Shown here: in pieces, positions 14,616 to 25,571 of the stretch
Layout of the letters: every line of letters begins with the position of its first letter
How positions within the stretch are numbered: position 1 is the first letter of the stretch
DNA from: an uncultured Chloroflexia bacterium
GTDB taxonomy: Bacteria > Chloroflexota > Limnocylindria > Limnocylindrales > CSP1-4
Direction of reading: 5' to 3'
Length of the DNA: 64,000 bases
Assembly: GCA_963779315.1 (NCBI GenBank)
Contig: CAVZXQ010000003.1
Span: 162,447-226,446 of the forward strand
Notes under the pieces: generated by a model
The model's database searches: none
What the model saw: the letters and a program-made list of their open reading frames with translations, nothing else
What the model was told of the DNA's origin: nothing
Translations under genes and position numbers: made by a program

Positions 14616-15629
14616 ATGAAGATCGCTCACGTTCGGGAGCGCGCCGCACCGGCGGGTGCCCCATGGCGGCTGGCCGGAGCGCTCGATCCGGACGAGCGGC
14701 CCGGCCGCTGGCTGGACCTGGAGGTGGCCCGCCGTCGGGCGGTGGCCGCGAACGGCAACCTCGCCCACAACGCCGCCCTGTATCGATCGCCCTTGACGAC
14801 GCTTGACGACCACCTGGCACGCGGCCTGCGGGTGGAGTCGCTGCGCGAAGTACTCGAGGGATTCGAGGCACGCGAGGACGACGATCCGGCCATCCTGCCC
14901 GGTCCCGAACTCGCCTTCGGGCCGCCCGTCCTGCGGCCGCCGTCGATCCGCGACTTCTACGCGTTCGAGGGGCATGTCCGGGCGATGTGGGCGCGCCGCA
15001 GCGCGGCGATCCCGGATCGCTGGTACACGCTGCCGGTCTTCTACTTCACCAACACATCGGAGATCCGCGGACACGACGATGCGATCTGGGCACCACGCGG
15101 CTGTCGGGAGCTCGACTACGAGCTCGAGGTCGCGGCGATCATCGACACACCGGCGATCGACCTCGCCGCGGAGCGCGCCGAGGAGGCGATCGGCGGCTTC
15201 ACGATCTTCGACGACTGGTCCGCACGCGATCTGCAGCGCGAGGAGATGGCGCTCCAGCTGGGCCCGGCCAAAGGCAAGGACTTCGCGAGCGCCTTCGGAC
15301 CGTACCTGGTGACGCCGGACGAACTGGCGGACGTCCGAAGCGGCACCGGCTACGACCTCGCGATGACGGTGGCGGTGAACGGCGTCGAGACCGGCCGCGC
15401 GCGCTGGTCGGACGCGCACTTCAGCTTCGGCGAGATGCTGGCCAGGGCGTCTGCGGACGTCCATCTTCGCGCCGGCGAGATCGTGGGCAGCGGTACGGTC
15501 GGGACGGGCTGCCTGCTCGAGACGAAGGAGGCGACCCTGGGCCGCTACCTCGAGCCGGGCGATGTCGTCACGCTCGCCATCGAACGCCTGGGTGAGCTCC
15601 GGAACCCGATCGCGCCGCGTCCGACCTGA
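14616..15629 (+). CDS. Fumarylacetoacetate hydrolase family protein
   Basis: IRDFYAFEGH, LDYELEVA, DWSARDLQ, KGKDF and GSGTVG. Confidence 0.92.
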   Translation: MKIAHVRERAAPAGAPWRLAGALDPDERPGRWLDLEVARRRAVAANGNLAHNAALYRSPLTTLDDHLARGLRVESLREVLEGFEAREDDDPAILPGPELAFGPPVLRPPSIRDFYAFEGHVRAMWARRSAAIPDRWYTLPVFYFTNTSEIRGHDDAIWAPRGCRELDYELEVAAIIDTPAIDLAAERAEEAIGGFTIFDDWSARDLQREEMALQLGPAKGKDFASAFGPYLVTPDELADVRSGTGYDLAMTVAVNGVETGRARWSDAHFSFGEMLARASADVHLRAGEIVGSGTVGTGCLLETKEATLGRYLEPGDVVTLAIERLGELRNPIAPRPT

Positions 15630-15722
15630 GCACGTCAGCCACGAAGATCGAACCATTCGGGCCAACGCCGACTCATCGGGGGCATAGCGTCCAGGTCGGA
15701 CGCCTTTAGGGAGGGCCGGTGG

Positions 15723-16274
15723 GTGCAACGAGCACTCGTGGACCTGGCTCGACGGGGAGATGAAGAGGCGTTCGCCGACCTCGCACGTGCGGTCGGCGAT
15801 CGGTTGATGGCGATCGCGTACAGGATCCTGCGCGACGTCGATCGAGCCGAGGACGCCGTCCAGCAGACCCTCGTCACCGCCTGGCGCGAGCTGCCATCGC
15901 TGCGCGATGCCGATCGGTTCGATGCCTGGCTTCGGCGGATCCTCGTCCACGCGTGTTACGCGGAGGCGAGGCGGCGACGCAGCTGGGCCGCCAACGTTCG
16001 CATCCTGCCGGTCGACGGACCGGATGGGCGCGACGACATGGCGACCGTCCTTCAGCGTGATCTTCTCGAGCGTGCGTTCCGGCGCGTGTCGCCGGAGCAG
16101 AGCGCGATCTTCGTCCTGCATCACTACGTGGGCTTGACCCTTGCGGAGGTCGCCGACGAACTCGGCGTACCACTCGGGACGGTCAAGTCCCGCTTGCACT
16201 ACGCCACGCAATCTCTTCGGGCGGCGCTCGACGCCGATGCCCGGACAGTCTCATCGACGGAGCGTCTCGCATGA
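15723..16274 (+). CDS. ECF RNA polymerase sigma factor 1
   Basis: AEDAVQQ, FDAWLRRIL (region 2) and GVPLGTVKSRLHYA (region 4). Confidence 0.93.
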   Translation: MQRALVDLARRGDEEAFADLARAVGDRLMAIAYRILRDVDRAEDAVQQTLVTAWRELPSLRDADRFDAWLRRILVHACYAEARRRRSWAANVRILPVDGPDGRDDMATVLQRDLLERAFRRVSPEQSAIFVLHHYVGLTLAEVADELGVPLGTVKSRLHYATQSLRAALDADARTVSSTERLA

Positions 16275-17542
16275 CTACAGACCGCGACTTCGACCGGATC
16301 GCGATGGCCTGGCTGGCCGACGGTCCGGAGGAACTCTCCGATCGGGTATTGGACGCCGTCGTCGATGAGATCCACGTCACTCGACAGCGGCACGCCCTGC
16401 GCCTGCCGTGGAGGTTCTCGACCATGACCACACCTGCTCGCGTCGCCACGGCCGCCGTCATCGGCGTGCTCGCGGTCGGCGGCGCTCTCTTCGCCTTCAA
16501 CCGGTCGCAACCCGCCGTCGGCGGACCCGGGCCGAGCCCGACGCCCGTCGTCTCAGCGGTCCCATCCGTCGCGCCAAGCACGTCCCCCGCCGCCGTGACG
16601 GACCGCTCAGACGTCCCGGGACGGCTCCTGGTCCAGCATCTCGGCAACGCCCTGGACGGCTCAGAGGCGTCCGCGACGGACGGGAACTTCGGCACGCGGC
16701 GGTTCTACCTGATGGACCCCGACGGATCGAACATCACGGAGCTCCTGCCGGGCCAGCCTGCCGCCGGCAAGAACATGGCCGACATCTCGCCGGACGGCAC
16801 CAAGGTCGTGTTCATGGATTGGTCCGACACCCCGGCGATCCATGAGGTCAACCTGGACGGGACCGGCTATCGCCAGATCACGACGACGCGTGCGACTGCA
16901 TCGAGGGCGATCCGGCCTATTCGCCGGACGGCAAGCAGATCGCCTTCGTGCGAGAGTTCCTGGGCACGTTCCGGATCGGGATCCGCGACCTCGCGACAGG
17001 CATCGTGACGATGCACGGAGAGACCGAAGGGACCGACCGGGCGACACGGCGCGAGTACCCGGAACAGCCCAGCTGGTCGCCCGATGGCACCGAGATCGTC
17101 TACCAGGTGACGACGCGCGACGACAGCGACCAGATCCTTTCCTCGAGGATCCGGATCGTCGATCTCGAGTCCAGGCAGGGCCGGGACCTCCCGATCCCGC
17201 CCGAACTGAAGGCGGGCGAGCCGAAGTTCTCACCCGACGGCTCGTTGATCCTGTTCGTGTCCGGACCCGCCGAGCAGACGCTGGGGCAGGTGCGGCCTCG
17301 GCGGTGTCTACACGATCAAGCCGGACGGGACCGCCATGACGGAAATCTCGCCGAGGACGAAGGGACGGGCGCCAGCTGGACGCCCGACGGCAAGCACATC
17401 CTGTACTACGACCAGAACAACATCTGGCTGATGGACCCGGATGGCGCCAACAAGGCGCTGTGGAGCGCCAACGGGCCGGACCTCAGCAACAACGGAACGC
17501 GGCTACGGCTACACGACCTACTGGATCCCGCCAGCCCCCTGA
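16271..17542 (+). CDS. Putative anti-sigma factor 1, single TM, with TolB/PD40 propeller (frameshifted)
   Basis: ATGA overlap with the sigma gene, TM helix, Pro/Ser/Thr linker and SPDG repeats. Confidence 0.75.
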
Positions 17543-17557
17543 TCCACCCCTCACCAT

Positions 17558-17586
17558 GGCCGGCCTCTCCTTCGGGGAGGCCGGTC
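17558..17586 (+). terminator. Stem-loop with TTCG loop after anti-sigma 1
   Basis: GGCCGGCCTCTCC-TTCG-GGGAGGCCGGTC. Confidence 0.6.
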
Positions 17587-17619
17587 GTTCCGCGTCCCGC
17601 GTCTGACTATCATTCGCCG

Positions 17620-18144
17620 ATGGGATCCGCTCGGGCCGCGAAGCTCCGCATCGAGCCGATGACGGCCGCCGACTGGCCGGAGGTGCGGCGGATCTACGCC
17701 CAGGGCATCGCGACCGGCGATGCCACGCTGGAGCGCGAGGCGCCCGACTGGGATCACTTCGATCGATCGCACCCGAGCGAGTGCCGATTCGTCGCTCGGG
17801 CCAAGCCGGGTGGTCCCGTTCTCGGCTGGACGGCGCTTGGTCATTACTCCGCCCGCAAGGTCTACAGCGGCGTCGCCTGGGAGAGCGTCTACGTTGCAGA
17901 GGACGCCCGGGGACGCGGTGTCGGCCAGGCGCTCCTGCGGGCGCTCATCGGCGAATCGGAGGCCGCCGGTTACTGGACCCTGTTCGCCGGCGTCATGGTG
18001 GAGAACGCCGCCTCGATCGCCCTGCACGAGTCGGTCGGCTTTCGACGGGTCGGCGTCCAGCGCGGCATGGGCCAGGATGCCGGCGGTCGCTGGCGGGATG
18101 TCGTCCTGCTCGAGCGCCGGAGCGAGGTCGTCGGGGCGGACTGA
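17620..18144 (+). CDS. GNAT N-acetyltransferase (YncA/phosphinothricin-type)
   Basis: IYAQGIATGDAT, SVYVAEDARGRGVG and ENAASIALHESVGF. Confidence 0.92.
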   Translation: MGSARAAKLRIEPMTAADWPEVRRIYAQGIATGDATLEREAPDWDHFDRSHPSECRFVARAKPGGPVLGWTALGHYSARKVYSGVAWESVYVAEDARGRGVGQALLRALIGESEAAGYWTLFAGVMVENAASIALHESVGFRRVGVQRGMGQDAGGRWRDVVLLERRSEVVGAD

Positions 18145-18172
18145 CGCCGGCACGGACCTGGCGTCCGGTCGG

Positions 18173-19039
18173 TCAGCTCGCGGGAGCCTGCGCGCCAGCG
18201 CGTAGATCTGCCGGGCGCCGGTGATCCCCTTGAGTTCGTGCGACCCGCGACTCTCGAAGACCAGGTCGGATCCGGCGAGCAGCTCGTAGGTCGTCCCGGA
18301 GATCAGGACCTCGCTCGGGCCCGCCAGTGCCATGACCCGGGCGGCCATGTGGACGGCCACGCCCCGGACATTGCCCGGGACCAGCTCCACCTCGCCGGTG
18401 TGGACGCCCGCGCGGATCTCGATGCCCAGGTCGCGTGCGGCCAGCGCAGATGCCGGCTGCTGCGCGGACCGCGCGCTCGGAGCTGTCGAACAGGGCCAGG
18501 AAGCCGTCGCCGGTCGTGTCGATCTCGCGCCCGCGGAAGCGATCCAGCTCGTAGCGGCCCTTCTCGTTGTGGCGCGACAGCAGCTCGCGCCAGGCTGCGT
18601 CGCCGAGCCGCACGGCCATCGCCGTGGAGTCGACGATGTCCGTGAACAGGATCGTCGAGAGGATCCGCTCGCCGTTGCCGACCACCGGCCGCGCGAACGA
18701 GCGCATCCCGGCGAAGTCCACCGTGATCCACGGTTCGTCGCCGATGACCCACGCGTCGTGGCCGGGCGGGATCTCGAATGCCTCGCCGGCGCTGATCTCC
18801 AGCGACGTGCCGTCCTCCAGGACGCAGTGCAGCCGCCCGGCCAGGCAGTAGCCCAGGTGGTGGTACATGCACAGGTCCGTGCCGGCGATCGCCTTGACGT
18901 CCGTCGACCAGCGCCAGCCCGGTTCGTACACGGTCTTGCCGACGATGTTGTCGCCGATCTCGAAGATCTCGACGCGGCCGTTCGGAAAGGTGCGCACCTC
19001 GTCCGGGGCGTCGAGGTGCTTGCGCAGGAGTCGGACCAT
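18173..19039 (-). CDS. Cupin fused to class III nucleotidyl cyclase (frameshifted)
   Basis: Cupin EPGWRWS...PPGHDAW; cyclase [22 protein letters not shown] and AVHMAAR. Confidence 0.88.
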
Positions 19040-19213
19040 GCAGCCTCCGGTGTCGCGTCGTGTCCGCCGATGGTAGACCTGCCGACGCCCGTCAGTGACT
19101 CCGGGCACGATCCGGCTCCAACGCCCCGCCAGGAGGTATCTGAACGTTCCGGCCCCGTCCCCGTCATAGTGGGTGATCCGGACCGCATGGCCCGGACATC
19201 ACCGGAGGTCGAG

Positions 19214-19766
19214 GTGGATCGAGACCTCGTCGAGCTGGCCCGCAAGGGCGATCGTGAGGCGTTCGCGGTCCTGGTGCACCAGGTCAGCGACTCGCTCTAC
19301 ACGGTCGCGCATCGGATCCTGCGCGACCCGGGTCTCGCCGAGGACGCTCTGCAGAACGCCCTCGTGCTCGCCTGGCGCCGGATCCCGCACCTGCGGGAAC
19401 CGGACCGCTTCGAGGCGTGGTTCCATCGGATCCTCGTCCACGCCTGCTACGACGAATCGCAGCGGGCTCGCCAGTGGACGGCCAACGTCCGAGTCCTGCC
19501 CGTCGACGGGCCGACGACACCGGACGAGTCGGCCGCCATCGCCGACCGCGACGAACTGGAGCGCGCCTTCAGGCGCCTTCCGGTGGATCAGCGGGCGGTC
19601 TTCGTCCTGCACCACTACCTCGGGCTGCCGCTCGTGGAGATCGCCGAGATGCTGGAGATCCCCGCGGGCACGGCCCGATCCCGACTGCACTACGCCACCC
19701 GCGGGCTCCGCGCCGCCCTCGACGGCGGATGCCGAGCCCCTTGCCCAGGAAGGACGACTCGCATGA
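19214..19766 (+). CDS. ECF RNA polymerase sigma factor 2 (one extra base near 19723)
   Basis: [16 protein letters not shown] and [10 protein letters not shown]; GGAGG RBS. Confidence 0.92.
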
Positions 19767-20705
19767 CCGACGACCGTTCGATCGAACGAGCCGCCCGGTC
19801 GTGGCTCGAGATCGGCCCGACCCAGGCACCCGAGCGCGCCGTCGAGGCCGCGCTCCTCCAGATCGATACCACCACCCAGGAACGGGACTGGCACGTCCCG
19901 TGGAGGTTGCCCAAGATGACCACACCGACTCGCGTCGCCACGGCCGCCGTCATCGGCGTGCTCGCGATCGGCGGCGCGCTCTACGTGTTCGCTCCAGGCG
20001 GTTCCGTCGCCCGGTGGGCCGGGCCCGACGCCGACGCCGACGCCGGATCACGTCTCCGGCTCCCAGCCCTTCTCCGATGCCGCTCCACGATGGTCCGCTG
20101 GCCGCGGGCACGTACCTCACGCGTCACCGTTCGCACAGCCAGGCAGCGACGCGTGCTTCGTGCCACCGCAGCCTGGATGCATCGACTCGAGCCGATGACG
20201 ACTCCATCCGCGTCACGTTCACCGTCCCCGATGGCTGGGTCAGGGTCGACATCGTCGTTCCCGACGGACGCCGAGCACCGCCGCGGCCGACGGGGCGAGC
20301 CTGCATCTTCGCCCGAGGCGGCCTGGTTGTACGCCGATCCCTGTCGCGAACGCCGGCACCCCGGACGACTCCAGGTCGGCCCGACCGTCGACGACTTCGT
20401 CGACGCGCTCGCGGCGCATCCGCTGCTCGACGTGACGACCCCCGTCGACGTCGTCGCTGGCCGGGTACTCCGGGAAGTACCTCGAGCTGCAGGTACCCGC
20501 GGACCATCGCCGAGTGCTGAGGTCCGTATCTGCCCCTGGGAGCCGCGGTATCTACGCCCAGGGGCCGGGCGAGCGGTGGCACCTCTGGATCCTCGATGTC
20601 GAAGGCGTCCGCGTCGTCGTCCAGAGCATGGACTACGCTGGGACGTCGGCGCAGCACCGAGCCGAGCTCCAGGCGATCGTGGACTCGATCCAGATCGAAC
20701 CCTGA
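19763..20705 (+). CDS. Putative anti-sigma factor 2, single TM, with unrelated C-terminal domain (frameshifted)
   Basis: Same N-terminal motif as anti-sigma 1; ends [13 protein letters not shown]. Confidence 0.72.
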
Positions 20706-20739
20706 GCCCTCGGTCCTCCGCCGGCGCGGACTCGCTCTA

Positions 20740-20770
20740 GACTGGCCTCCTCACCGCGAGGAGGCCAGTC
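20740..20770 (+). promoter_or_regulatory. Perfect 13-bp hairpin containing the hmgA RBS and overlapping a -10-like TAGACT
   Basis: GACTGGCCTCCTC-ACCGC-GAGGAGGCCAGTC; ATG at 20775. Confidence 0.7.
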
Positions 20771-20774
20771 GCTC

Positions 20775-22009
20775 ATGTTCTACGCGGCCCACGGGAGCAT
20801 CCCGCCGACCCGCCACACGCAGCATCGGGCCCCTGACGGCTCGCTCTACGCGGAGGAGCTGTTCGGCGTCGAAGGGTTCTCCGGACGATCGTCGCTGCTC
20901 TACCACGTCACCCCGCCGACGCGGACCCATCGGATCGAACCGGTCGTCGGCGCGCATCTCGAGCTCGAGGAGGCCGACGACGGCTACCACCACCACCGGC
21001 TGATCGACGCGGCCGCCGTCCGAGCCGCACGGCGACGCGATCACCGGCCGGATCCCGCTGTTCTTCAACAACGATGTCGTGATGGGCGTCGTCCGGCCCG
21101 CCGACGCGATGCCGGAGAACGTGTTCTACCGGAACGGCGAAGCGGACGAGATGCTCTACGTCCACGAGGGCGAGGGCCTGCTGGACACCGTCTTCGGGCC
21201 GCTCCGCTACGGCCCGGGCGACTACCTCGTCCTGCCGATCGGCACGACCTGGCGGCTCGCCCCGGACGCCGGCAGCGAGCAGCGGATGCTGTACCTCGAG
21301 TGCCCGTCGGAGATCGAAGCGCCCGAAGCGCTATCGAAACGACTACGGCCAGCTGTTGGAGCACTCGCCGTATCTCGCAGCGCGACATCCGACTACCCGA
21401 CGATGTCCCGCCGCGGACCGACGAGGGCGAGTTCCGGGTCCACGTCAAGATGCGCAACCGGCTGACGGCCTACCACTACACGCTTCCATCCCTTCGATGT
21501 CGTCGGGTGGGACGGCTACCTGTGGCCATTCGCGTTCAACATCGGCGACTTCCAGCCCATCACGGGTCGCGTCCACCAGCCGCCGCCGGTCCACCAGACG
21601 TTCCAGGCGCGCAACTTCGTCGTGTGCTCGTTCGTGCCGCGCAAGTTCGACTACCACCCGCTCGCGATCCCGGCCCCGTACAACCACAGCAACATCAACA
21701 GCGACGAGGTCATCTACTACGTGGCCGGCAACTTCATGAGCCGCCGCGGCGTGGGGATCTAGCTCGTTCACGCTGCACCCGGCCGGCATCCCGCACGGCC
21801 CGCATCCCGGCACCGCGGAGGCGTCCATCGGCAAGGAGGCGACCGAGGAGCTGGCGGTCATGGTGGACACCTTCCATCCGCTCAAGATCACGCGTCAGGC
21901 GGCCGCCATGGAGGACGCCCGCTACCCGTACAGCTGGCTCCCGGCCGAGGACGCCTCCGGCGAGGCCCGCGAACTCGCAGACCGCGGGCCGGAGGCGTTC
22001 CCGGACTGA
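20775..22009 (+). CDS. hmgA: Homogentisate 1,2-dioxygenase (frameshifted)
   Basis: EELFGVEGFSG, NGEADEMLYVHEG, HPFDVVGWDG, VHQPPPVHQTF and HPAGIPHGP. Confidence 0.93.
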
Positions 22010-22027
22010 GCAGGAGGGCTGAGGTCC

Positions 22028-23308
22028 TCAGCCTCCGGGCTGGAACCTGACGGTGGACAGGAAGCCCTTGAGCAGGGGCACCTCATCGGGTCGCCAGGCC
22101 GAGAAGACGTGGACCTGATCGCCGATGAACACGAATGCCTGGGAGGCGTCGCAGGCGTCTGGATTGAGCAGGCCCGGCTGACCGTCGACGGTGATCGCCT
22201 CGAACTGGTCGATCGGGGTGCAGCCGGTGGTCGGCGAACCGTCGCTGTGCGGTGCGTTGTACGCGGCGAGCCAGTCCTCGTTCGACATGCCTGCGGGGAC
22301 GGGCGCCGTGAACGCCGTGACCCCGATCTGGTACGCCGCACCGGTGTCGAGGAAGCCGTCGGCGGCCTTGGTCCGCTCGAGTTCGTCCGGTCGGCCTCGA
22401 GCGACCAGTCGCTCGTCGCAGGCGTCGCGGTCCAGTCGGCGGGTAGGACAGGTCGTACCCGTACCGATCCGATGAGAAGGGAAGCCAGTCGGACGTGTCG
22501 GGCTGGAACCTGACGGTGGACAGGAAGCCCTTGAGCAGGGGCACCTGATCGGCTCGCCAGACCGAGAAGACGTGGACCCGATCGCCGATGAACACGAACG
22601 CCTGGGAGGCGTTGCAGGCGTCTGGATTGAGCAGGCCCGGCTGGCCGTCGACGGTGATGGCCTCGAACTTGTCGATCGGCGTGCAGCCGGTGGGATCGCC
22701 AGTGCTGTCCGGCGCGTTGTACGCGGCGAGCCAATCCTCGTTCGACATGCCGCGGGGACGGGCGCCGAGAACGCCGTGACCCCGATCTCGTACGCCGCAC
22801 CGGGCTCGATGAAGATGTCGGCGGCCTTGGTCAGCGATCTCGTTGTCCGGTCGGCCTCGAGCGACCAGTCGCTCGTCGCAGGCGTCGCGGTCCAGGTCGG
22901 CGGGTAGGACAGGTCGTACCCGTACCGATCCGAGGAGAAGGGAAGCCATGCGGTCGTGTCGACCGGCGCCGCAGCGACCGGCGAGGGCGAGGTCGCCGCC
23001 GACGGCGCGGCGGATGGTGCGGCAGTGGTGGGCGACGCCGTCGCACCGCCCACGTCCGACCCGGAGGCAGGCGGTTTGATGAGGAACGCGCCACCCAGGA
23101 CGACGGCGACGACCGCCGTCGCCGCGAGGGCGAACTTGGGAGCTGTGGTCATGTCGAAGTACCTCCACGGCGCGCGCATGGCGCGCCGACGTTGGGTGGT
23201 CGTGGGGATGGCGACGGAGATCGCGCGGCGGGTCTGGTCGGGGAGCCGGGTAGGCCCTTCGTCCAGCCACGCGGACAGGATCTCGTCGGGATCGCGTGGT
23301 GTCGTCAT
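22028..23308 (-). CDS. Putative anti-sigma factor 3, single TM, with tandem-duplicated C-terminal domain (frameshifted)
   Basis: WLDEGP...TTQ...PWR motif, TM helix, two copies of WLPFSSDRYGYDLSYPP...FLSTVRFQP. Confidence 0.75.
   Translation of the reverse strand: MTTPRDPDEILSAWLDEGPTRLPDQTRRAISVAIPTTTQRRRAMRAPWRYFDMTTAPKFALAATAVVAVVLGGAFLIKPPASGSDVGGATASPTTAAPSAAPSAATSPSPVAAAPVDTTAWLPFSSDRYGYDLSYPPTWTATPATSDWSLEADRTTRSLTKAADIFIEPGAAYEIGVTAFSAPVPAACRTRIGSPRTTRRTALAIPPAARRSTSSRPSPSTASRACSIQTPATPPRRSCSSAIGSTSSRSGEPIRCPCSRASCPPSGSSPTRPTGFPSHRIGTGTTCPTRRLDRDACDERLVARGRPDELERTKAADGFLDTGAAYQIGVTAFTAPVPAGMSNEDWLAAYNAPHSDGSPTTGCTPIDQFEAITVDGQPGLLNPDACDASQAFVFIGDQVHVFSAWRPDEVPLLKGFLSTVRFQPGG
22036..22961. 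repeat. Tandem direct repeat, 2 x about 463 bp
   Basis: Units start at 22036 and 22499 with identical CGGGCTGGAACCTGACGGTGGACAGG and align throughout. Confidence 0.95.
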
Positions 23309-23857
23309 GCCGGTCGTGCCTCCGTGGATGTCGACCTGGCTGTCGGCGACGATCGCCGCGCGCAGGGTTCGAGTGGCGTAGTGCAGCCGGGACTTGACCG
23401 TCCCGACCGGGACACCGACGACGTCGGCGATCTCGGCGAGCGGCAGCCCGGCGTGGTGGTGCAGGACGAAGACCGAGCGATGTTCCGGGGTCAGCCGGAG
23501 GAAGGCTCGATCCAGTGTGTCCCGGTCGTCGACCGAGACGGTGGTGTCGGGTCCGCCCGGTCCGTCGACCGGCAGACTCCTGATCCTGGTGGCCCAGCGC
23601 CGATGCCGGCGCAACTCCTCGTAACAGGCGTTCACGAGGAGCCGATGGAGCCACGGGCCGAAACGCTCCGGATCGCGCAGCCGTGGGAGTTCCCGCCAGG
23701 CGAGGAGGAATGCCTGCTGGACGGCGTCCTGCGCCCGCTCCGCATCCCGGACGATCCGGTATGCGATGGCGTAGCAGCGGTCACCTTCCAGGTCGACGAG
23801 CTCGGAGAAGGCGACATCGTCGCCACCCTTCGCCCGTTCGACCAGCCTCGTCCGCAT
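23305..23857 (-). CDS. ECF RNA polymerase sigma factor 3
   Basis: AQDAVQQ, FGPWLHRLL and GVPVGTVKSRLHYA. Confidence 0.92.
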
Positions 23858-24051
23858 GTGCGGTCACTCCCGACGGCGCCCGAATGGACGCTTCACCCGG
23901 TGCAGATGGTCGCACCCGCCTGAAGGTTCAATGACGCCCTACGGGACGCACTGACCTCGCATGGTGCCTGCCGGAACCGGACCACGGGCGCGAGATGGTC
24001 GGGACGACCGAGGCATTCCCTCGGACCATCTCACGGCCTCACGATGAGCGG

Positions 24052-25571
24052 ATGGATGCCCACGTTCGAGCCGGGCGCGCTCCGATGGTGGCGCTCGCTT
24101 CGATCCTGCTAGTCGGCCTGGTGGCACCGTCGCTGGTCGCCGCCGCCACCGACACGGATCACGACGGGCTGCCGAACGACTGGGAGCGAACGGCGTCGCG
24201 GACGAACCCCAGCAAGTCGGACACCGACGGTGACGGCCTCGCCGACAACTACGAGGATCCCGACCACGACTCCCTGACCAATCGGATGGAGTGGCTCGCG
24301 GGCACGAACCCGCTCAAGGCGGACACCAACGGGAACGGCATCACCGATGGGCGCGAGGATCCCGACCGCGACGGCCTTCGCAACTGGTTCGAGTTCTCGG
24401 CCGGCACCTCGACGAAACGAGCCGACAGCGACGGCGACGGCAAGGCGGACGGCTACGAGAACCCCGACAACGATGGTCTCGGCAACCGAACCGAGCAGGG
24501 CCTGTTGACGAAGCCGCGGGCGTATGACACGGATCGCGATGGCTGGTCGGACGGCGCGGAGGTCAAGGCGAAGACGGACCCCCGAAGCGCGTCGAGTCAC
24601 CCGACCGCCCCGACGCCCACGCCTAGCCCGACGCCCACGCCAAGCCCGGCCCCGACGCCACGCCAGCCCGACGCCCAGCCAGCCCGGCCCCGACGCCCTC
24701 CCGACCCCGACACCCGCACCAGGCACCGCGCCGGTCCTGCCGGGGGCCACGAGCTGCACCGTCTTCCCGTCCTCGAACGTCTGGAACGTGCCGATCGATG
24801 CGCGACCGGTGGCGTCGAACTCGGCCACGCTGATCTCGACCATCGGGCTGACGACCGGCCTGCACATGGACTTCGGGTCCTTCGCGGGCTACGGGATCCC
24901 GTGGCAGATCGTGTCGGCGACGACACCGCGGTCGTCGGTCACCTTCGACTACGACGACGAGTCCGATCACGTCGACTACCCGATCCCGGCCAGTCCGCTC
25001 ATCGAGGGCGGCCCGGACCGGCACATCCTGCTGGTGGACAAGGATGCGTGCCGCCTGTACGAGCTGTACGACGCCCGCAAGGTCGGCAGCGCATGGCTGG
25101 CCGGAAGCGGGGCGACCTGGGACCTCAGCTCGAACGCCCTGCGCCCCGCCGGATGGACCAGCGCCGACGCGGCCGGCCTGCCGATCCTGCCCGGGCTCGT
25201 CCGCTACGACGAGGTCGCCGCCGGCCGGATCCTGCACGCCCTGCGGTTCACGACCGACCGGACCCGGACCAGCTACGTCTATCCGGCGCTGCACCAGGCC
25301 GGAGAGTCGTCGTCCGACGTCACTGCCGCCGATGGGACTGCGCGTTCGCCTGAAGGCGGCCTACGACACGAGCGGCCTGTCACCGCAGGCGCGCGTCATC
25401 GCCGAGGCCCTCAAGCGCTACGGGATGATCCTCGCCGACAACGGTTCGGACTGGTATGTCTCGGGTGCCAGCGATCCCCGCTTCGACGATGACGTGCTGC
25501 ACGAACTCGACGCCATCACCGGTCGCGATCTCGAGGTCGTCGACACGACCGGTCTGGTCAACGGACCGTAG
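24052..25571 (+). CDS. Secreted protein: DxDxDG Ca-binding-like repeats, PT linker and uncharacterised C-terminal domain (frameshifted)
   Basis: Signal peptide ending VAAA; roughly 34-aa repeats TNP..DTDGDG..D..ED.D.D; SPTPTP linker. Confidence 0.75.

Follow-up and report, generated by a model that had tools for sequence, protein, structure and literature searches.

Introduction

Extracytoplasmic function (ECF) sigma factors serve bacteria as a main way of sensing the environment, and many of them are without a recognisable regulator. Among the anti-sigma factors that have been described, CnrY represents class II: its first helix binds the sigma-4 domain and its second helix the sigma-2 domain, as described in PMC7406223. 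A modular anti-sigma factor with variable sensors is also a known design, namely that of RsgI, which is released by RseP cleavage within its transmembrane (TM) helix according to abstracts among PMC12203970, PMC6852018 and PMC6582324. Here we describe three cassettes, each made up of an ECF sigma gene, an ATGA junction and a gene for a single-pass membrane protein with a common N-terminus of ~52 residues, which lie in a 64,000-nucleotide stretch of contig CAVZXQ010000003.1 of an uncultured Chloroflexia bacterium (GenBank assembly GCA_963779315.1; this whole stretch is the window in what follows). We think it likely that they are three functional ECF sigma/anti-sigma signalling modules, members of a family expanded in one Chloroflexota class (Limnocylindria-type), for which we propose a clamp-and-release mechanism.

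A first-pass annotation of the window, made from its letters, had interpreted the cassettes as a polymorphic sensor system with a constant signalling module and variable ectodomains. It named three findings that would speak against this: a match of the N-termini to a characterised anti-sigma family, a failure to bind the sigmas, and fixed C-terminal domains in homologues. All three were looked for and none was obtained, binding being judged by co-folding; the interpretation is thus supported, to the extent that the predicted complex is correct.

Three sigma and putative anti-sigma pairs

The genes of the three cassettes, with the membrane proteins termed putative anti-sigma factors 1 to 3, are as follows:

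15723..16274, + strand: ECF sigma 1; 183 amino acids (aa), GTG start, intact; Pfam Sigma70_r2 at E 1.6e-12 and r4_2 at E 1.4e-12.
16271..17542, + strand: anti-sigma 1; ATGA overlap with sigma 1; predicted two-helix domain 16271-16426, TM helix 16430-16498, Pro/Ser/Thr linker, PD40 beta-propeller.
19214..19766, + strand: ECF sigma 2; GTG start; Pfam r2 and r4_2; an extra base near 19720 shifts the last ~15 codons.
19763..20705, + strand: anti-sigma 2; cytoplasmic domain 19763-19918, TM helix 19922-19990, linker, predicted PsbP/Mog1-like ectodomain ~20100-20705.
23305..23857, - strand: ECF sigma 3; ATG start at 23857; Pfam r2 at E 2.5e-14.
22028..23308, - strand: anti-sigma 3; cytoplasmic domain 23150-23308, TM helix 23078-23146, linker, predicted tandem PsbP/Mog1-like domains ~22499-22961 and 22036-22500.

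The three paralogous genes are ECF sigma factors, as the first-pass annotation had it. All three products match Sigma70_r2 and r4 or r4_2 of Pfam and are without r3, which is the layout of the ECF (group 4) factors (sigma-2 and sigma-4 domains only, ~180 aa); they are 55-60% identical in pairwise comparison, and the motifs quoted for them in that annotation are present. Sigma 1, which is 97% identical to its orthologue in another genome (G018), passes the ECF superfamily model TIGR02937 with 73.8 bits (cut-off 42.9), and its best narrower NCBIfam model, TIGR02983, is matched with 109.4 bits, under the cut-off of 141.55. The closest solved sigma is SigW (E 1.2e-27), which has a solved complex with RsiW (PDB 5wuq), and CnrH is a detectable relative of the window sigmas (E 2e-18). 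The word 'Chloroflexi' is not present in the main text of an ECF classification (PMC7826278).

The N-termini of the membrane proteins are 35-51% identical to one another, far above chance, and a profile built from the three picks up more copies, with E-values down to 1e-18; the anti-sigma 2 domain matches the family profile at 1.3e-42. Each of the three has the shared motif that had been read from the letters, is without the ZAS motif, and is followed by one TM helix and a Pro/Ser/Thr linker.

Predicted binding of the sigma factor

Sigma 1 (alignment of 30 rows) was co-folded with residues 1-58 of anti-sigma 1 (31 rows), on alignments of our own making. The pair scored 0.81 and the best of three controls, a swapped sigma among them, 0.00; of 80 solved complexes 58 pass the mark applied, and of 110 mismatched pairs 2 do. 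At least 91% of contacts are common to the runs, and the partner has a pLDDT of 72 or more. In the predicted complex, anti-sigma residues 2-41 lie on sigma residues 12-59 (sigma-2) and 111-170 (sigma-4): residues 6-18 contact sigma 111-135 and 165-170, residues 21-41 contact sigma 12-59, and in the closest pairs sigma 115 and 131-135 are touched by residues 14-15, sigma 18-54 by residues 21-33. The N-terminus is thereby predicted to have the class II feature, a short domain of two helices, the first on sigma-4 and the second on sigma-2. That the N-terminus binds the sigma had been put forward in the first-pass annotation together with co-folding as a check, and the model, in which the helices run between the two sigma domains, argues for it.

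Genomic linkage points the same way. In the genome from which the window comes, all 15 loci with the N-terminal domain lie directly downstream of an ECF sigma locus, and in other genomes the domain stands directly downstream of the sigma in 78 of 80 cases (the best 80 of at least 587 sigma-related loci). Over 90 pairs, sigma identity and N-domain identity are correlated (r 0.71, a value reached by none of 999 permutations, with relatedness contributing), which fits co-inheritance. The membrane proteins could instead be co-transcribed envelope proteins that do not bind sigma, their N-terminus serving membrane insertion or another partner: this would agree with the missing match to any curated anti-sigma model, and it gains something from the tendency of co-folds to be over-confident, the evidence of binding being in silico. 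Such a view has to contend, however, with the adjacency at 78 of 80 loci elsewhere and at all 15 in the own genome, together with the ATGA coupling, with the strong co-variation with the sigma, with the gap between the co-fold and its controls (swapped sigma included), and with a contact surface that covers just those sigma-2 and sigma-4 faces typically hidden by anti-sigma factors. We therefore regard non-binding membrane proteins as very improbable.

Identity of the N-terminal domain

Judged by its sequence, the N-terminal domain belongs to no curated family, in keeping with the first-pass annotation, which had not recognised it: neither Pfam, nor PDB sequences, nor local zinc-type profiles give a match, and the NCBIfam model NF052375 is reached below threshold only. 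The three window N-termini contain no Cys, and the H-x3-C-x2-C motif is absent from all 31 aligned members. None of the three is matched by Pfam at E<=0.1, and no anti-sigma family, zf-HC2 and RsgI included, is among the 25 Pfam families shown of the 32 matched by 97 full-length homologues. A profile search of PDB sequences gave nothing beyond one chance TM match (E 2.1), and the ESM Atlas search with residues 1-80 gave no lead (scores of at most 0.77, TM-scores below 0.5). There is also no Pfam, NCBIfam or PDB-sequence match to CnrY, the presence of a CnrY model in these libraries being unconfirmed and short domains diverging fast.

Both AlphaFold models of family members have two cytoplasmic helices before the TM helix (residues 4-17 and 24-36 in one, 9-19 and 26-38 in the other), with a disordered basic stretch between helices and membrane; pLDDT in the helix region does not exceed 73 (first model 59-73, second model 57-63). 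A predicted two-helix domain of ~50 residues differs from the four-helix, ~100-aa layout of class I. The domain could nevertheless be a degenerate class I (zinc-type, RskA/RslA-like) domain that has lost its zinc ligands and middle helices, that is, a divergent member of a known superfamily. The matches to NF052375, a model named 'anti-sigma factor', favour this: 17 of 31 members match it at E<=0.1 (best E 1.4e-4); the profile positions matched, ~47-104, cover the TM helix and what follows the Cys motif; and in the own genome the model marks RskA-like H-x3-C-x2-C proteins that adjoin ECF sigmas of another, more distant kind. Nor is the line between the classes sharp: in PMC7406223, domains of under 50 aa found with a class I model are ones that 'could be divergent class II'. 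The two scores shown are, however, 16.2-16.4 bits against a cut-off of 100, with an aligned stretch that is partly TM helix; hhalign gives a probability of 0.07% when the 31-sequence N-domain profile is set against 15 zinc-type anti-sigma domains of the same genus; zf-HC2 is not matched; and only two cytoplasmic helices are predicted. We consider a degenerate class I domain unlikely, while a distant link to helix 4 of the class I domains is possible.

The RskA-like H-x3-C-x2-C proteins are encoded at G000:C4:186389-187132, C6:42094-42663 and C6:165954-166253 (G000 being the own genome). The Pfam zf-HC2 search understates such zinc-type factors, with no match in this genome at E<=1e-5.

Ectodomains and their replacement

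The C-terminal parts had been described as unrelated: a PD40 propeller in the first protein, a different single domain in the second and a tandem in the third. The propeller and the tandem are both borne out. Ectodomain 1 matches PD40 (PF07676) at E 8.3e-19 in the window piece and at E 2e-18 in the intact G018 orthologue, and the TolB propeller model TIGR02800 at E 1.7e-20, under its cut-off. Ectodomain 3 consists of two ~460-nt copies that are 90-100% identical at a repeat spacing of 459-463 nt, and its orthologue in the genome G001 has a single copy (289 aa); the tandem reads as a recent duplication.

Ectodomains 2 and 3 fall in different groups by blastx: anti-sigma 2 matches L009, a member of the largest unnamed ectodomain group, in pieces from three frames with 65% identity over 87 aa, and ectodomain 3 is ~30% identical to L034:11383 and others (E 5e-10). 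No Pfam family is found at E<=0.05 for the ectodomains of L009, L029, L034:11383 and others. Their folds were read from AlphaFold models of the orthologue families and not from the broken window genes, with ectodomain pLDDT mostly 80-98. With Foldseek, the L009-family model has PsbP, LpqN and Apa as its top matches (E 4e-5), and the model of the ectodomain 3 family matches CyanoP/PsbP (E 4e-6); over both models the matched folds are PsbP/CyanoP, Mog1, LpqN, Apa, MTC28, DcrB and Tsi3, with TM-scores by target of 0.5-0.56. A profile alignment of the two groups continues into the ectodomain. Ectodomains 2 and 3 are hence predicted to share a PsbP/Mog1-like fold, to which the PD40 ectodomain 1 is unrelated, and of the claim that the C-termini are unrelated the part that sets PD40 apart from the rest stands, whereas the part that separates 2 from 3 does not.

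A catalogue of C-terminal domains, as had been suggested, lists PD40, Kelch, other propellers, DUF4232 and PsbP/Mog1-like models. Among the 97 homologues, Pfam assigns PD40 to 11, Kelch to 7, propellers of the DUF6923, DUF5074 or WD40 type to 3, NHL to 1 and DUF4232 to 1; the other Pfam families shown match at most 7 homologues each, so most of the 97 are without a Pfam ectodomain match. In a protein database, 83 matches comprise 7 with PD40-type domains, 7 with Kelch-type domains, 2 with sigma-factor domains and 67 with none, and the models predict PsbP/Mog1-like folds for the two largest unnamed ectodomain types. By BLAST the 97 homologues form 25-30 ectodomain clusters, a rough count, single linkage having merged PD40 with PsbP-like proteins via linkers and multi-domain proteins.

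The expected variability of the ectodomains is thus seen among the homologues, and it is also seen at one position of the genome. Between the window and G001, the segment 19202-20002 (sigma 2 and N-domain) is 84.9% identical in DNA and the segment 20737-22010 (downstream gene) 85.9%; the 735-nt ectodomain between these syntenic blocks has no DNA or protein match in G001, which has a DUF6923/PQQ-type propeller where the window has the PsbP-like domain. This clean replacement of an ectodomain at a syntenic locus is new. Throughout the sigma-2 orthogroup, sigmas are 88-94% and N-domains 80-96% identical, yet the ectodomains are PsbP-like, PD40 or of the DUF6923 type. Among 81 pairs of cassettes whose sigmas share at least 75% identity and whose two partners each have 260 aa or more, 47 have the same ectodomain cluster and 34 different ones; gene breakage in error-prone assemblies will account for some of the 34.

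Family size and distribution

The first-pass annotation spoke of a family of three; the window in fact holds 3 of 15 such pairs in its genome. In this genome (2.9 Mb, a Limnocylindria-type Chloroflexota), the sigma profile finds 40 ECF loci and the N-domain profile 16 matches at the 15 loci, three of them weak (E 0.002-0.005). Most ECF sigmas at 167-182 kb of contig C18 are without an N-domain match. Counting copies per genome with an N-terminus model had been proposed as a check: within the genus, a single N-terminus query matches 17 of 18 genomes, with up to 14 copies in one, while zinc-type domains number 0-3 per genome; in the sister family, none of 12 small genomes (1.0-1.4 Mb) has a match to this query.

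In public data, of 1.84 billion representative clusters the 31-sequence profile matches 5167 at E<=1e-3 and 3137 at E<=1e-10, and a scan with the sigma alignment yields at least 587 confirmed relatives. By record title, 79 of the best 80 of these are Chloroflexota-type (Limnocylindria, Limnocylindrales, Chloroflexia, Anaerolineaceae) and 1 is from Actinomycetes. In an even set of 300 genomes of the phylum, with 18 candidates scored per genome, the window's class has the N-domain in 21 of its 32 genomes, and in the 268 others it was not found. The lineage expansion claimed at first is therefore real, and stronger than was thought then. What is new here is a very abundant anti-sigma domain family that has no curated model, is predicted to use the short two-helix mode and, in the Chloroflexota genomes searched, occurs in one class only. 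For comparison, genome-reduced Limnocylindraceae have fewer sigma factors than their sister family CSP1-4 in PMC13212565 (2026); 'ECF' and 'anti-sigma' are absent from the main text of that paper, and a single literature search gave no other work on sigma factors of Limnocylindria.

Frame changes

As assembled, the window has at least 12 frame changes in ~5 kb of cassette coding sequence. The coupling by ATGA described in the first-pass annotation holds for the junction itself in all three cassettes; overlapping frames of stop and start are assembled only in cassette 1, cassettes 2 and 3 being single open reading frames (ORFs) of 802 and 609 aa. A DNA alignment with four orthologues places a single inserted base near 19720 in sigma 2, and minus this base the gene ends ...EGRLA-TGA, overlapping the ATG of anti-sigma 2. 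In sigma 3, one extra base at ~23330 relative to the G010 orthologue fuses it in frame to anti-sigma 3. Without the extra bases both sigmas end ...RLA/RPA-TGA on the ATG, like every intact relative. True sigma/anti-sigma fusions in cassettes 2 and 3 were considered and rejected: each hangs on one extra base that all orthologues are without.

The putative anti-sigma genes are affected as well. Against the intact 422-aa G018 orthologue (L006), anti-sigma 1 has four frame-changing indels, near 16885, 17293, 17341 and 17488; anti-sigma 2 has at least three frame changes and anti-sigma 3 has three. At 23330 the extra base is missing from contigs of two public runs, of which one agrees with the window at every other position over 181 nt, and a short-read contig is without 2 nt at 17341. 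Each of the public runs covers at most 0.17 of the stretch, and the listed contig pieces do not reach 19720; the indels given are the best-supported ones, and 38 more exist. The HgmA-like gene (homogentisate dioxygenase N-terminal family) at 20775-22022 has single extra bases at 21020, 21325, 21483, 21763 and 22016 that are absent in public-run contigs, and its G001 orthologue is an intact ORF of 407 aa. Both M50 protease loci of the genome are split too (G000:C2:13878-14880 and C19:160764-161287), and the genome scores 66.7% complete in only 19 contigs, with rpoB whole.

These frame changes are probably assembly indels, with small indels apparently genome-wide: we read them so because completeness is low for so few contigs, unrelated genes are broken, public contigs are without the extra bases, and conservation continues across the shifted frames. 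The number of frame changes, and the splitting of 6 of the ~22 closest sigma paralogues in the genome, might instead be taken to mean that the window cassettes are pseudogenes decaying by real mutation in a redundant, over-expanded family. Decay of this family, however, would have to be squared with unrelated neighbours broken in the same manner (the HgmA-like gene with its five extra bases, both M50 loci), with a completeness score of 66.7% in only 19 contigs, with the contigs that differ at 23330 and 17341, and with amino-acid conservation that runs on through the shifted frames without stops. We consider pseudogenes quite improbable, and take the cassettes as probably functional genes in a faulty assembly.

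Four database proteins (P0009, P0016, P0092 and P0098) have sigma domains followed by the N-domain at about residue 185. Since both fusions in the window depend on one extra base at the ATGA junction, the fusion records of this family may be assembly artefacts rather than true fusions.

Promoters and leaders

Upstream of each sigma gene lies a promoter-like region with a leader:

15647..15715, + strand: cassette 1; -35-like ATCGAACCATT at 15647-15657, -10-like GACTCATCGG at 15670-15679, GC hairpin 15687-15703, ribosome-binding site (RBS) AGGGAGGG at 15708-15715.
19138..19213, + strand: cassette 2; ATCTGAACGTT at 19138-19148, CCGTCATAGTG at 19161-19171, imperfect hairpin 19177-19196, GGAGG RBS.
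23862..23933, - strand: cassette 3; CATTGAACCTT at 23923-23933, GACCATCTGC at 23902-23911, hairpin 23876-23891, GGGAG RBS.

Of 38 non-redundant regions upstream of family sigma genes, 31 contain a GAAC anchor (consensus TTGAACgtT) at a distance of ~70-82 nt (mostly 70-77) from the start codon; a CTCAT, CGTCAT or CCATC element follows 16-17 nt past the anchor, and after it come a hairpin rich in GC and a GGAGG site. Among the three window promoters both elements vary. From this arrangement autoregulation by the sigma is plausible.

The leader hairpin lies at a fixed distance past the -10-like element, with a sequence that varies by subfamily. In 30 leaders the best stems total 196 bp, against 152.7 +/- 5.8 in shuffled sequences (reached by none of 100 shuffle sets), and in 21 of the 30 the hairpin begins at position 12-14 of the extracted segment. 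Folding energies of 14 leaders lie modestly under those of shuffles (z from +0.19 to -2.47, mean ~-1.1). The hairpin may stabilise the leader.

Neighbouring genes

Cassettes 1 and 2 are flanked by a gene of the fumarylacetoacetate-hydrolase family (14616-15629, + strand) and the HgmA-like gene (+ strand), which correspond to two steps of homogentisate breakdown; G001 has the same arrangement. Located between these cassettes is a gene (18173-19108, - strand) that combines a cupin domain with an adenylate/guanylate cyclase domain and whose counterpart in G001 is upstream of the first cassette; the locus has therefore been rearranged. Divergent from sigma 3 is a thrombospondin type 3 (calcium-binding) repeat gene (23995-25353, + strand), which has a frame change midway and is syntenic with G001. 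The window cassettes neighbour a GNAT gene and the HgmA-like gene, and no gene for a propeller lipoprotein follows any of the three.

Proposed mechanism

We propose that the sigma gene is translationally coupled, at the ATGA, to that of a single-pass membrane protein whose first ~50 residues would form two helices that clamp the sigma, helix 1 on sigma-4 and helix 2 on sigma-2. The clamp would hide the sigma surfaces needed for joining RNA polymerase, a binding logic that in the model is the short class II (CnrY-type) mode. A basic Q-R-R...P-W-R-F stretch and an Ala/Val-rich TM helix would anchor the protein with its N-terminus inside, and the Pro/Ser/Thr linker would bear the sensor outside, with the PD40 propeller for cassette 1, a single PsbP/Mog1-like domain for cassette 2 and a pair of such domains for cassette 3. 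Signals acting on the ectodomain would probably lead to degradation of the anti-sigma, likeliest by regulated intramembrane proteolysis: M50 site-2 protease genes are present in the genome, and RsgI is released in this way according to the abstract of PMC12203970. Once freed, the sigma would transcribe its own operon, from a promoter of the GAAC...N16-17...C(G/T)(T/C)CAT type, plus other targets. Over evolutionary time, sigma and N-terminal clamp would be inherited together and ectodomains exchanged by recombination.

Several points weigh against this reading. The co-fold score is a measure of model confidence, and could reflect memory of solved ECF/anti-sigma complexes. Given the recurrent weak matches to NF052375, the N-domain may be a trimmed class I relative rather than a separate kind. 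Searched genome-wide, the strict pattern of each promoter type matches its own operon only, and no further regulon was found. If the frame changes that break the window copies as assembled are real, these copies are dead. Finally, truncated genes in error-prone assemblies push the counts of ectodomain clusters up, and single linkage pulls them down.

A bolder version of the proposal is that the N-module is an independently evolved minimal two-helix anti-sigma domain and the default ECF regulator of one Chloroflexota class, and that the cassettes are polymorphic, recombination at the TM/linker boundary swapping ectodomains and so rewiring the same sigma to different signals in close species. 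We advance this tentatively, and think it less likely than not to hold in full.

Implications and comparison with known systems

A large anti-sigma family of thousands of clusters, the dominant type in an abundant uncultured lineage of soil and sediment, has been without a curated model; a model of it would let annotators give partners to many orphan ECF sigmas. With it the class II binding mode, which has few members, probably gains a second sequence family. The rewiring of signal specificity becomes testable in natural sensor-swap pairs, which differ in the ectodomain but have sigma and clamp in common. There is a warning as well: a database entry for a 'fused sigma/anti-sigma' protein of this family can owe its fusion to an assembly error of one base at the ATGA junction.

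Among known systems, CnrH-CnrY of Cupriavidus metallidurans (PDB 4cxf) is similar in having a short cytoplasmic two-helix domain on a single-pass protein, and the helix topology predicted here is that described for it in PMC7406223. The likeness was drawn by description and not by superposition, and on our side depends on the predicted complex. It differs in that the window domain has no sequence similarity to a curated model, and in that here a large ectodomain follows the Pro/Ser/Thr linker and the gene lies directly downstream of the sigma gene. In CnrY the periplasmic part is no more than small, and the protein acts together with CnrX.

The class I zinc-type factors (RsiW, RslA, RskA; NF052375, zf-HC2) share with the cassettes a gene downstream of the ECF sigma and a single-pass protein with its N-terminus inside and a domain outside; unlike them, the window domain is without H-x3-C-x2-C and has ~50 residues and a predicted two helices, against ~100 residues and four. 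The SigI-RsgI pairs of Clostridium thermocellum are the closest in overall design, as far as the abstracts of PMC12203970, PMC6852018 and PMC6582324 go: many paralogous pairs per genome, with a constant N-terminal sigma-binding module and differing outside sensors. In that system, however, sigma-I is not an ECF sigma, the N-domain is a different one, and the sensors of RsgI are carbohydrate-binding modules, in place of the propellers and PsbP-like domains of the cassettes described here.

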